Of a stretch of DNA of 64,000 bases, positions 30,344 through 32,542 are shown piece after piece. The DNA is from an uncultured Pseudomonadales bacterium (GTDB lineage: Bacteria; Patescibacteriota; Microgenomatia; UBA1400; PJMF01), in assembly GCA_964511345.1 (NCBI GenBank), contig CAZEEV010000001.1, positions 150,621 to 214,620 of the forward strand, in the 5' to 3' direction. Each line of letters begins with the position of its first letter. The stretch's first letter is position 1. Made by a program: the position numbers and the translations under genes. Below the pieces are notes generated by a model, which did no database searches, was not told the origin of the DNA, and was given only the letters and a program-made list of their open reading frames with translations.

Positions 30344-32542
30344 TTATCTTTTTATAAAGTTAATAATCTTTACTTTATTTTTTTTCCATTTTTTATAGCC
30401 AGACAGCATGAACTTGTAAGATTCTTTTTGTATAGAGTTTAGATTATTTATATTAATAGACTTAACACTATTTAAATCAAATAAATAGCCAGTTTTATTA
30501 TGTTTTATATATTCATTCATGGTTGGATTATTTACTGCAATGACGGCCTTACCCATGGCCATAGCCTCTAAAAATGATAATCCAATCCCTTCATGTTCTC
30601 TGGGGGCCACATAAATAGCAGCTTTTTTAATTAAATTATTTAAGTCTTCCTTATTCTTTAACCAAGTGGAGTAGCTAATTGAAAATTTTTGCTCTTGCCC
30701 TTTTGTTGGTTTAACAAAAGTATGACTTGGATCAATTGCCTTGTGCAAGTGAATTTTTAATTCCTTTTCTTTGTCAAAAAGCTTTTCGATTGTATTGATA
30801 TTTATATAAGTAAGTCGTTGCCAGAAAAATATTTGTTTTGTGTTTCCTGCATAAAACTTATTTGGTTTTGGAAAATATTGCAAATGTAACGAATTCAAAT
30901 CTAAGTTAATCAATTTTTTATGTAGAGTTTTGGAAAAATTGAGAAATTTGATATTTTTATATTGCAACCAATAATCATTTGGCAAAGCACCACTCCCATC
31001 ATACATTGGACAAAAAATAAGGTTTTTATTTTTAATTTTAGCAAGAACCTCTGGAGAGTATATGTTTTGAAAAAACACTACTCCTAAGTAAGAGTCGTCA
31101 ATAAAATCAAGGTTTGGAGGAGTTTTTCCCTGCCATGTTTCATCTAGAATAACGGTTACCTCAAAATACTCTTTTAAGTAATTAATTAAAAAAGCAGTTG
31201 ACTGTGTTTTGTCATGATAAGAATGACCTATGTAGACAATTTTTTTAGATTTTCTATTTGTGTCAGAGTTAAAATACTTAATAAAATTCTTAAACCCAAC
31301 TTTAAACAACATGGGTAAATACTGAAAAAGATATAAATATAAATGATATATTTCTTTAAATAATCTTCTTTGTAAACTATTTTTTGGCAAAAATAATTTT
31401 GCAATTATGCGAATTTTTTCAGCCAAACGCCACATTTTGGTATTTTGCATCATTATTATAGCTTTGCTTAATTTTACATTTTTTTTATTTAAATCGGTCA
31501 ATTTTTTATTTAAATCAGTCAACTTCTCCTCAACTGTTTCCAGATTGTTTTTAGTTAACACAAATTTTTTGTTTTTTTCTTTTAAAAGACTTTTTGCTTC
31601 AATTAAATTCTTTTTTAAACTTTCTAGTTCAGATTGGACTTGATAAAAGCTACTTATTAAGTTGTTATACTTCAAGAATCTCTGTACTCTAGAAACAGCA
31701 ATGTCATTTTCTATTATTTTTTTTGGAAAATTAAGGTTTTGTATTAAATTAAGTGATTCTCCAAAGTCAAACAGGTCATTATTTACCTTACAATGTACTC
31801 CAGAGCCATCAAAGCCGATGTTTTTAGTCAAACTAATAACTGGATTTAAACACAATCCATGATGTTTAAATATGCTGGCATACCAAAAAATAGCCCAAGT
31901 ATTAATTTGACCACTTTGGTTATCTAAGACTTGTTGCCAAAAGTTTTCAAAACCATCTAGATTAAATTTGTGAACATCTTCTTCAGAAAAGGTTTCAACC
32001 AATTCATTTGGATCTTTCTCAAAATGTTGCCATCTATCTTTCCAAGTTGCCCAACCCCAACAGTGCATCATTCTCCAAAGAACTGCATCGTTCATTTCTC
32101 CAGTTAAAATTGGGTAATTCCAACCAGAAATATGCCAAACTTTTTTCTCTTTTTCAAAAACATTTAAAGCTTGATTCATATAATCAAGAAAATACGGAGA
32201 AACAACAATGTCGTCTTCCAAAACAATCACTTTTCCATATTTATTAACGATCTCGCTTACACCACCGATTATTTGAGATGCTAATCCATTATTTTTTTCA
32301 CTTTCAATTATTTTAATTGAATTGAAACCATTAATTTTTTTTAAGTATTCTCGAACTTCCAAAACACCATCACTAACATTTTTCTGTCCATCAGAGTAAA
32401 TCACCAGATCACTAGACTTAGCTAGCTCATTTAATTGCAAAGCCTTAACGGTTTCCTTCAAGTGCTTTAGTCTGTTGTAGACAAACAAAACTATTGGAGC
32501 AAGATTCTTTTCGTTAATTAAAGTTTTTTGTATACCACTCAT
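30344..32542 (-). CDS. bifunctional glycosyltransferase: N-terminal GT-A domain, central coiled coil, C-terminal GT4 domain
   Basis: 732 aa. N-terminus '[16 protein letters not shown]...VIVLEDDIV'. Heptad-rich '[14 protein letters not shown]' segment. C-terminus '[22 protein letters not shown]' EX7E. Confidence 0.6.

Follow-up and report, generated by a model that had tools for sequence, protein, structure and literature searches.

A genuine 732-residue Patescibacteria protein joins two different sugar-adding enzymes through a helical spacer. Its gene lies in a 64,000-nucleotide stretch of DNA, here called the window, within a cluster that also encodes a Wzm/Wzt ABC transporter. We judge the chances to be about evenly balanced that the protein is a scaffold in the style of WbbB and WbdD, that is, a membrane-associated, probably oligomeric bifunctional glycosyltransferase whose GT4 domain works with the chain-building core while an exchangeable distal head caps the chain. 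The gene and its parts are as follows.

30344..32542, minus strand: target ORF, ATG to stop, 732 aa plus stop, with GT-A head, coiled coil, amphipathic linker and compact GT4
31808..32515, minus strand: head, a GT13-like (GNT-I family) GT-A domain, aa ~10-245
32210..32218, minus strand: EDD (DXD-type) metal/nucleotide-sugar motif, aa 109-111 (E109-D110-D111)
31436..31687, minus strand: coiled-coil spacer, aa ~286-369, about 84 residues or about 12 heptads, which would span about 12 nm as one uninterrupted, extended coil
31481..31522, minus strand: 21-bp tandem duplication (TRF period 21, 2.0 copies, 95% match) encoding LTDLNKK twice, a one-heptad length change
31247..31435, minus strand: conserved linker, aa 370-432, with an SxxW[KR] motif, PxxSxRR and then a basic/aromatic hydrophobic stretch
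30347..31246, minus strand: compact GT4 domain (GT-B, retaining type), aa 433-732, hereafter GT4c
30566..30592, minus strand: EX7E motif, E651...E659

At the base composition of the target ORF (28.7% GC), 732 codons without a stop are expected by chance with p ~1e-30. The identical 732-aa protein was found in two further, independently assembled samples (L087 and L088), and full-length homologues share its architecture (P0001, 57% identity, 686 aa; P0007, 37%, 721 aa). An artefact or chimera of assembly is thereby ruled out as the source of the fusion. A later start codon, which would abolish the overlap with the adjoining fcl-like gene, was also rejected because the next in-frame start is codon 19, within the first beta-strand, and homologues begin at the same site. 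Reading 30344..32542 on the plus strand gave no ORF; the initial annotation had not named a strand. All four peptides that it quoted are present (aa 17-28, LEDDIV at aa 108-113, aa 341-354 and aa 649-670), and the three-part fusion of GT-A, coiled coil and GT4 that it described is borne out by Pfam matches, an AlphaFold2 model and heptad periodicity. In the monomer model (mean pLDDT 85.1), aa ~10-245 form the GT-A domain, long helices span 280-366 and GT-B occupies 434-732.

A GT-A fold lies within the N-terminal 300 residues, recovered by both Pfam profile and AlphaFold2 model as a Rossmann-like alpha/beta/alpha domain. The head matches Pfam GNT-I PF03071 at aa 7-144 with 35.7 bits (cutoff 25.4), a partial match covering profile positions 87-234 of 434, and it also matches GT2 PF00535. 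EDD is invariant among 30 head homologues, as are N23, R24, D51, W164, W167 and W171, and it aligns to the LEEDL segment of POMGnT1. The head is only 14-17% identical to GT13 GnT-I/POMGnT1 and GT16 GnT-II and, unlike them, is bacterial, cytoplasmic and devoid of a stem or transmembrane region. Members of the head family are fused to FkbM or SAM methyltransferases, hexapeptide acetyltransferases or PF01522 deacetylases, and flagellin glycosylation islands (L089, L090) are one example of the single-addition, non-polymer contexts in which the family also occurs. Kinship with GT13, together with the deacetylase fusions, suggests that the donor is possibly a HexNAc.

The C-terminal domain matches Pfam Glycos_transf_1 PF00534 at aa 629-697 (E 6.6e-17) and has the two-Rossmann GT-B fold. 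Its EX7E motif, already recognized as canonical GT4 in the initial annotation, is intact. Among 36 GT4c sequences, none departs from E651, H440, H443, S448, R576 or K665, and conservation of E659 is at least 90%. The canonical GT4 N-domain profiles (PF13439/PF13579) gave no match to GT4c in the Pfam search, yet the fold is still GT-B. A GHSYHxKTxS motif specific to the family is found in the N-domain, which is compact. This motif, unmatched by the Pfam N-domain models, distinguishes GT4c from the compact GT4 enzymes of lipid-linked glycan assembly (PglA, PglH, WbnH, BshA and PimA), to which it is 11-16% identical. GT4c is a stand-alone enzyme of ~300-360 aa in 74 of the best 150 cluster representatives, and about a third of its members have an upstream SxxW linker and coiled coil.

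The heptad-like repeats noted earlier in the middle of the protein were confirmed. Heptad periodicity over aa ~286-369 is 0.85, against a shuffle maximum of 0.80, and exceeds 200/200 shuffles. AlphaFold2 places helices at aa 280-322 and 327-366, and a weak golgin-type Pfam match spans aa 284-368. For a coiled coil that would extend between a membrane-proximal region and a distal enzyme, the spacer is rather short. A crude heptad score, indicative only, puts it at ~60 residues in P0001 and as few as 30-50 in some homologues. Among relatives, coiled-coil length varies by exact heptad units: P0007 has LDTTKSQ twice in its coiled coil, and P0002, P0003 and P0004 differ internally by no sizeable indels other than gaps of 14 and 21 aa.

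Between the coiled coil and GT4c, W371 of the linker is at least 90% conserved among 36 family members, and the basic/hydrophobic character of the linker is kept across the family. The hydrophobic moment peaks at aa 392-409, where it is the highest of the entire protein (muH 0.60, net +2). pLDDT is low in the linker (range 44-72; low at aa 408-419). A transmembrane anchor was ruled out, as hydropathy over 19 residues does not exceed 0.93 outside the GT4 core and no transmembrane segment was found. The linker is a candidate in-plane membrane anchor and docking region.

The genes surrounding the target are those of an ABC-transporter-dependent glycan locus.

32514..33446, minus strand: fcl-like GDP-L-fucose synthase (NCBIfam GDPFucSynFcl E 2.3e-145, 483.8 bits, just below the 500 cutoff), same operon as the target
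29359..30342, minus strand: GT2 of 327 aa (GT2-327; PF00535 1.6e-20), beginning 2 nt after the target stop, same operon
25635-26393, minus strand: core glycosyltransferase GT2 of 252 aa (GT2-252)
24481-25635, minus strand: core glycosyltransferase GT4 of 384 aa (GT4-384)
23687-24478, plus strand: wzt (PF00005; NCBIfam TagH 5.9e-80, galactan Wzt 1.8e-56), 263 aa, nucleotide-binding domain only
22921-23739, plus strand: wzm, ABC-2 exporter (PF01061; NCBIfam galactan Wzm 5.5e-22)
21006..22127, minus strand: glf, UDP-galactopyranose mutase (PF03275 1.5e-71), 70% identical in L001

The target start overlaps the fcl stop by 29 nt (32514-32542), as previously noted, and the overlap recurs in L088. 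wzm and wzt belong to the same cluster and lie 6 kb from the target. No Wzt_C carbohydrate-binding module (CBM) was detected in the window Wzt at E<=0.01. A detached CBM may be encoded elsewhere in the locus; the ORFs without a Pfam match (16053-17201, 18147-19589 and 19564-20235) gave no NCBIfam match either. The cluster also contains a separate three-component extracytoplasmic glycosylation cassette (26489-29378). Elsewhere the window encodes a Wzy_C protein (48002-49603) and two NYN genes that are just 33% identical to each other. Direct or inverted DNA repeats of at least 40 bp flanking the cassette were sought in the 20-40 kb region of the window and none was present.

From fcl and glf, the initial annotation had proposed that fucose and galactofuranose are incorporated. 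The fcl-like gene and glf are indeed present. Within the window there is no gmd, as neither SDR (17189-18145 and 37864-38916) scores as Gmd, and the head is not specifically implicated as a fucosyltransferase because fcl accompanies the conserved core even in loci that have no GT-A head.

Comparison of related loci revealed that the head is exchanged. Syntenic loci keep fcl (84-92% identical in L001, L002, L005 and L007), the linker and GT4c (68-79%), GT2-252 and GT4-384 (54-87% across the same four loci), wzm and wzt, and GT2-327 is 83% identical in L007 and 44% in L001. The head is a GNT-I-like GT-A domain in the window and L001, a PF13489 methyltransferase in L002 (split in L007) and missing in L005. 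Headless P0005 (L005/L006) retains the coiled coil and GT4c, so that the coiled coil must do something besides holding a head at a distance. P0002-P0004, L013, L016 and L027 have methyltransferase heads, and more distant family members have DUF5672, GT2, GT4 or FkbM methyltransferase heads. wzm and/or wzt adjoin family members in L001, L002, L004, L005-L011, L015, L017, L020, L025, L027 and L028. The closest relatives (L001, L002, L005-7) have a Wzt of 245-254 aa with no CBM, and seven more distant family loci (L004, L008, L009, L011, L017, L020 and L028) have a Wzt with a Wzt_C domain.

Replacement of the head by methyltransferases in syntenic loci argues against a place for the head in the backbone repeat. 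A capping head is favored because no methyltransferase could serve as the polymerase module for a backbone, yet one takes the place of the head. The target would then act in the Wzm/Wzt-dependent synthesis of a polyprenol-linked cell-surface glycan. The cationic, aromatic amphipathic linker (aa ~370-432) would tether the retaining GT4 (aa 433-732) to the cytoplasmic side of the membrane, where it may extend the chain together with the core enzymes GT2-327, GT2-252 and GT4-384. The ~80-residue coiled coil (aa ~286-369) would oligomerize the protein and hold the inverting GT13-like head (aa ~10-245) roughly 10-12 nm off the membrane. There the head would add one sugar, possibly HexNAc, to the grown chain at its distal, non-reducing part. 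By the logic of WbbB, WbdD and ORF6-O7 this sugar would cap the chain, either stopping its growth or marking it. Because the head is an exchangeable cassette, related strains could end or decorate a similar backbone differently. A strict terminator-ruler is weakened because Wzt here has no cap-reading CBM and one relative, P0005, has a coiled coil but no head.

Known systems offer partial precedents. In ABC-dependent glycan assembly, an extended coiled-coil protein is described as the distinguishing mark of the terminator/ruler strategy (PMC11231755), and in coiled-coil terminator systems the terminator is always at the distal end (PMC11231755; PMC11127046). The comparison with WbbB made in the initial annotation is apt in this context since the target sits in a Wzm/Wzt ABC-transporter-dependent locus, and the analogy is unproven. 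WbbB of Klebsiella pneumoniae O12 and Raoultella terrigena consists of a GT99 beta-Kdo terminator, a coiled coil and a GT102 plus GT103 polymerase. Like it, the target is one polypeptide of an ABC-transporter-dependent pathway, with an N-terminal glycosyltransferase (single-addition in WbbB), a coiled coil and a C-terminal glycosyltransferase module (membrane-proximal in WbbB) (PMC11231755). The two have no kinship in sequence or family: the target head is a GT13-like GT-A domain, not GT99, its base is one compact GT4, not GT102 plus GT103, and the remaining glycosyltransferases of its locus are separate proteins. In O12 the CBM of Wzt reads the Kdo cap, unlike the CBM-less Wzt of the target locus. 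The host of the target was assigned to the Patescibacteria (CPR) from RuvB, the GTDB representative genomes scanned having yielded a best match of 77% and not the genome of the window itself. This host presumably has no LPS, unlike the hosts of WbbB, and because it is a Patescibacteria bacterium the term O-antigen is probably inapplicable.

The comparison with KpsC made at the same time was wrong, since KpsC does not belong among the coiled-coil ruler enzymes and the target has no matches to Kdo-transferase families. Nor does the target resemble KpsC-type dual beta-Kdo or KfoC-type tandem GT-A enzymes, in which modules of like fold follow one another without a coiled-coil spacer. The suggestion that the coiled coil is a molecular ruler is unproven, and the locus Wzt has no carbohydrate-binding module.

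WbdD (E. coli O9a/O8, Klebsiella O3/O5) and ORF6 (Klebsiella O7) are comparable to the target in carrying a distal enzymatic head on a coiled coil (PMC11231755). At the proximal end they have an amphipathic region associated with the membrane (PMC11231755), to which the target linker is a candidate counterpart. The coiled coil is an established ruler in WbdD-type systems, and ORF6-O7 also has polymerase modules C-terminal to the coil (PMC11231755). Relatives of the target with methyltransferase heads are closer still to these proteins. Unlike the target, WbdD has a methyltransferase or kinase-methyltransferase head and recruits a separate polymerase, WbdA; the target coiled coil is short, at about 12 heptads, and the Wzt of its clade has no CBM. 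Methyltransferases are the classical cap enzymes, as in WbdD and WsaE (PMC2943079). WsaE, of the Geobacillus stearothermophilus S-layer glycan, belongs to a monoderm Wzm/Wzt-dependent pathway and joins an N-terminal capping 2-O-methyltransferase to chain-building glycosyltransferase domains (PMC2943079), a likeness of domain layout. It differs from the target in being a methyltransferase with two rhamnosyltransferase domains. Downstream, its pathway has the Wzy_C-type transferase WsaB (PMC2943079), and a Wzy_C protein is encoded in the target window as well.

Another reading, which agrees with the addition of two consecutive sugars proposed in the initial annotation, makes the target a plain bifunctional polymerase. 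GT-A and GT4 would add two alternating repeat sugars, the coiled coil would only dimerize or scaffold, and chain length would follow from polymerase:exporter stoichiometry as in Klebsiella O2a. This dual-glycosyltransferase polymerase with a dimerizing coiled coil is a serious rival, to which we give perhaps half the credence of the capping scaffold. The CBM reads the cap in all characterized terminated systems, and CBM-less systems such as O1/O2a have no ruler (PMC11231755); the Wzt of the window, L001, L002 and L005-7 is of the CBM-less kind. A coiled coil that persists in headless P0005 is also consistent with dimerization. The short spacer and the many heads that are ordinary GT2 or GT4 enzymes, which fit a two-linkage polymerase too, count for this rival and against the capping scaffold. 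Against a polymerase, the core genes are 63-92% identical while the head is replaced by a methyltransferase or missing, so that a backbone linkage would be lost and the other machinery kept. In the WbbB paradigm, moreover, the distal head terminates and the proximal modules polymerize. The head family occurs in single-addition contexts and is fused to sugar-modifying domains, half of the family loci have cap-reading Wzt_C transporters, and a rigid 80-residue spacer between two sites alternating on one chain end would, we infer, be mechanistically awkward.

The head might alternatively add a branch sugar to repeat units emerging from the membrane-proximal polymerase, with the coiled coil giving reach and the outcome being serotype-like diversification. 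Variation of the head cassette between otherwise similar loci is what diversification predicts, the absence of a CBM from Wzt is in keeping with it, and decoration is a theme of the locus given its extracytoplasmic cassette (26489-29378) and the fusion of the head family to modifying enzymes. Published coiled-coil proteins of ABC-dependent pathways bear terminators, not branching enzymes (PMC11231755), and the Wzt_C domain found in seven family loci recognizes chain ends. We regard a side-chain decorator as unlikely, somewhat more so than the polymerase. That GT4c is a catalytically dead anchor or docking module, leaving the head as the sole enzyme of the protein and polymerization to the stand-alone neighboring glycosyltransferases, is very improbable: Pfam matches only the C-terminal half of the GT4 profile (aa 629-697), the domain is unusually small at about 300 aa and the base is conserved while heads vary, as a scaffold would be, but 36 diverse members show little or no change in the EX7E glutamates, R576 or the GHSYH/KT.S motif, and the domain is abundant as a stand-alone enzyme.

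Coiled-coil multi-module proteins are a known way to couple polymerization, capping and chain-length control in ABC-dependent glycan synthesis. To our knowledge the characterized examples all come from a few Enterobacteriaceae O-antigens, and the envelope glycans of Patescibacteria are essentially unstudied; a literature search on DUF5672 or on ABC-dependent glycans of Patescibacteria found nothing useful. If the target is only a dimeric dual-glycosyltransferase polymerase, the result is an ordinary refinement of annotation. If it is a capping scaffold, the locus extends the coiled-coil design to other enzyme families, with a GT13-like head and a compact GT4 base, and to Patescibacteria, and suggests that the cap-reading module of the transporter may be dispensable. 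A single locus type that bears either a GT-A or a methyltransferase head, or lacks one, together with length variants in heptad units, provides a natural experiment on the role of the distal head. Two uncharacterized families are nominated for study, the ~300-aa GHSYH-type GT4 (>500 clusters) and DUF5672. More speculatively, the coiled coil, linker and compact GT4 could form a universal docking chassis on which recombined heads (GT13-like, GT2, GT4, DUF5672 and SAM/FkbM methyltransferases) rewrite the glycan end, here setting both chain length and cap identity without a CBM on the transporter; we hold this broader proposal to be doubtful. If true, the chassis would work as a terminator-ruler independently of a CBM, in a lineage that is monoderm and host-dependent and whose surface glycans may mediate attachment to host cells.

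The initial annotation placed a 732-aa fusion at 30344-32542. A single 732-codon ORF, from ATG to stop, was found there on the minus strand, and the four peptides attributed to it are all present (aa 17-28, LEDDIV at aa 108-113, aa 341-354 and aa 649-670). The chance of a stop-free run this long is ~1e-30 at the ORF's GC content of 28.7%, the identical 732-aa protein was assembled independently in two further samples, and the homologous proteins P0001 (57% identity) and P0007 (37%) share the whole architecture. Because of these results, the fusion is genuine. There is no alternative in-frame start upstream of codon 19, and homologues start at the same point as the annotated protein. 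The 29-nt overlap of its start with fcl is exact and recurs in comparison locus L088. The neighbouring genes are as follows.

Glycan cluster and adjoining genes
21006-22127: glf
22921-24478: wzm and wzt, the ABC-2 glycan exporter genes
24481-26393: GT4-384 and GT2-252, glycosyltransferases named by length in aa
26489-29378, plus strand: three-component cassette of a 115-aa EamA-like small transporter, a 239-aa polyprenyl-phosphate-sugar-synthase-like GT2 and a 605-aa PMT_2/GT87-like GT-C
29359-30342: GT2-327, a further glycosyltransferase
32514-33446: fcl-like ORF upstream of the fusion (NCBIfam GDP-L-fucose synthase, E 2.3e-145)
33596-34398, minus strand: split GT8, as overlapping ORFs 34093-34398 (profile positions 2-78) and 33596-34144 (79-251)
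35199-36470, plus strand: Wzx-like (Polysacc_synt) flippase adjoining the ABC-transporter cluster

The proposed three-part layout (GT-A, coiled coil, GT4) was borne out by Pfam, heptad periodicity and an AlphaFold2 model of the monomer (mean pLDDT 85.1). Pfam detected GNT-I (PF03071, aa 7-144, above threshold) and GT2 in the N-terminus, and Glycos_transf_1 at aa 629-697.

Elements of the AlphaFold2 model
aa ~10-245: GT-A domain (the head)
aa 280-322 and 327-366: long helices
aa 369-384 and 390-425: two more helices, with low confidence at 408-419
aa 434-732: GT-B domain

E109-D110-D111, N23, R24, D51 and three tryptophans are invariant among 30 head homologues. Among 36 GT4-domain homologues, complete or near-complete conservation is seen at E651 and E659 of the EX7E motif, at R576 and in an N-terminal GHSYHxKTxS signature. 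Because catalytic motifs are kept, both domains look catalytically competent. Heptad periodicity over aa ~286-369 exceeds that of 200/200 shuffles by a home-made coiled-coil metric, and a 21-bp tandem duplication (31481-31522) gives the coil its LTDLNKK repeat. The linker that follows the coil and precedes the GT4 domain carries an SxxW[KR] motif, PxxSxRR and then a hydrophobic stretch rich in Lys/Arg and aromatic residues, all conserved family-wide. Its aa 392-409 segment is the most strongly amphipathic of the entire protein (muH 0.60); the linker has no transmembrane helix and is a candidate in-plane membrane anchor.

Four near loci (L001, L002, L005/6 and L007) keep fcl (84-92%), the linker and GT4 domain (68-79%), GT2-252, GT4-384, wzm and wzt. 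They differ in the head.

Head by locus
Window and L001: GNT-I-like GT-A
L002: PF13489 methyltransferase
L007: the same PF13489 methyltransferase, as an overlapping separate ORF
L005/6: absent, with a LicD / cytidylyltransferase / methyltransferase cassette upstream

In L007 (Pacebacteria UBA1364, the closest genome-resolved relative) the methyltransferase head occupies 8860-9894 and the coiled-coil/GT4 base 9761-11110, in different frames; this is either a genuine two-ORF version of the fusion or a MAG frameshift. The window GT4 domain is 76-79% identical to those of methyltransferase-headed proteins vs 68% to that of the GT-A-headed P0001, so head type is independent of the base. The head is swapped as a cassette at the coiled coil.

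At E<1e-3 the compact GT4 domain family counts 2106 cluster representatives, of which 563 pass E<1e-30. Among the best 150 representatives, the domain stands alone in 74, precedes other modules in 25 and follows a head of at least 200 aa in 45. Relatives in species-representative genomes (282) span Patescibacteria, Bdellovibrionales, Bacteroidota, Spirochaetota, Alphaproteobacteria, Firmicutes and one archaeon. Heads of remoter members are DUF5672, GT2, GT4 or FkbM. DUF5672 sits on the same base in L008 (9110-11134), L011 (8963-11062) and L014 (7237-9258). As a recurring head, accompanied in L008 and L011 by a Wzt bearing the cap-reading module Wzt_C, DUF5672 is a candidate glycan-capping enzyme. 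Wzt is encoded at 15/15 distinct head-bearing loci with enough flank; 7/15 carry Wzt_C (L004, L008, L009, L011, L017, L020 and L028) and 8/15, the window's clade included, do not.

The head family also occurs alone in Campylobacterota flagellin-glycosylation islands, L089 (flagellin, Maf) and L090 (NeuB, CMP-sugar synthetase, glf, FliM, FlgI), and in Wzx-type loci. It is often fused to methyl-, acetyl- or deacetyl-ating domains; its relatives in L089 (1-10614) and L090 (1-19215) are stand-alone or methyltransferase-fused. This profile is that of a single-addition decorating enzyme rather than a processive polymerase. The relatives in the flagellin-glycosylation islands suggest an uncharacterised family of flagellin-glycan-extending enzymes.

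In characterised coiled-coil systems of ABC-transporter-dependent glycan assembly the terminating enzyme is always distal, polymerase modules are proximal (fused in WbbB and ORF6-O7, recruited by WbdD) and an amphipathic helix binds the proximal end to the membrane (PMC11231755; PMC11127046). WsaE, from a monoderm Wzm/Wzt pathway, combines a capping methyltransferase with GT domains that build the chain (PMC2943079). By analogy, the layout of the fusion appears to match this terminator-scaffold design point for point in architecture and context. The membrane-proximal GT4 domain would work on the chain as it grows, together with the core GTs, and the distal GT13-like head would put one sugar on the chain's far end. 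This reading, favored by the layout and by methyltransferase replacement of the head in otherwise conserved loci, has about an even chance of being right. It is held back because a CBM is found on Wzt in every characterised terminated system (PMC11231755) and the window Wzt, 263 aa of nucleotide-binding domain only, has no Wzt_C, because the coil is short, and because a headless relative keeps its coil. Since that relative retains it, the coil probably serves at least also in oligomerisation or scaffolding.

Coil length differs by exact heptads among relatives, as judged by home-made metrics. The closely related methyltransferase-headed P0002, P0003 and P0004 show no sizeable internal indels apart from gaps of 14 and 21 aa in a KNxEIVx heptad array (4, 2 and 1 copies, respectively), a register-preserving length polymorphism. 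The P0007 coil has LDTTKSQ twice.

The main rival is the initially proposed dual-GT polymerase, acting as a dimer. Methyltransferases replace the head in otherwise conserved loci, which is hard to square with a backbone module, and we regard this rival as clearly less likely than the scaffold. Less probable still is a branching decorator. A catalytically dead anchor GT4, given its conserved EX7E, is very improbable.

Because fcl accompanies the conserved core, headless and methyltransferase-headed loci included, the fucosyltransferase is more likely a core enzyme than specifically the GT-A head. The fcl-like ORF scores 483.8 bits, slightly below the curated 500. No gmd was found within the 64-kb window, where neither SDR (17189-18145, 37864-38916) scores as GDP-mannose 4,6-dehydratase. 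Either gmd therefore lies outside the window or the Fcl-like enzyme acts on a different substrate.

Further genes of the window
617-2233, 10963-12474, 27561-29378, 39586-41046 and 49557-51011: five PMT_2 GT-C genes
3788-5551: PTPS_related membrane protein
22234-22830, plus strand, and 37247-37816, minus strand: NYN-domain paralogues, 33% identical, in inverted orientation
48002-49603, plus strand: Wzy_C (O-antigen-ligase-like) membrane protein
55379-56482: ManC-like nucleotidyltransferase

The three-component cassette, of extracytoplasmic glycosylation type, is embedded in the cluster on the strand opposite to the fusion. It is found in L001 and L007; L002 and L005 have GT2, DUF2304 and a ~536-aa Pfam-less protein instead. 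The PMT_2 and PTPS_related genes are interspersed with housekeeping genes (ArgRS, RuvC, RuvB, class II aaRS); so much extracytoplasmic glycosylation is unusual for a small CPR genome. DUF4012 is also encoded. The GT8 break lies at an eight-T run on the coding strand near 34143-34150; a frameshift pseudogene, phase variation by strand slippage and an assembly error could each explain it. GC is 27.5-28.5% over 26000-32000 (the cassette, GT2-327 and the fusion) vs 33-40% in the flanks, as would fit a part of the cluster that is exchangeable and possibly acquired laterally. The NYN paralogues stand on either side of ~14 kb that run from wzm to the Wzx-like gene; in the syntenic L001, L002 and L007 no counterparts were found, and no long DNA repeats flank this stretch.

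The Wzx-like flippase is conserved (54% identical in L001, 88% in L002). Because it is kept beside an ABC-transporter cluster, the locus may combine two export routes, or the flippase may instead serve a lipid-linked donor. The window Wzt is most similar to TagH and the mycobacterial galactan exporter. By analogy with WsaB and PglL, the Wzy_C protein is a candidate transferase that would attach the completed glycan to a protein or to the wall. RuvB shares 88% identity with a Woesebacteria protein and has only Patescibacteria among its named relatives, and Pacebacteria and candidate division TM6 are among the names in the 90%-identity cluster of glf; these relatives point to a CPR/Patescibacteria host. 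Since, to our knowledge, these bacteria have no outer membrane, a wall- or S-layer-associated glycan describes the product better than O-antigen does.

By its layout, the fusion would work like WbbB, WbdD and ORF6-O7, and it falls outside their enzyme families. Its head is GT13-like rather than GT99, GT137 or methyltransferase-kinase, and its base is a distinct compact GT4 rather than GT102, GT103 or GT2. The suggested likeness to KpsC and KfoC failed when family membership was compared. For specialists, its value lies in a natural head-swap series, a heptad-unit length polymorphism, its presence in Patescibacteria and its apparent independence from a transporter CBM.
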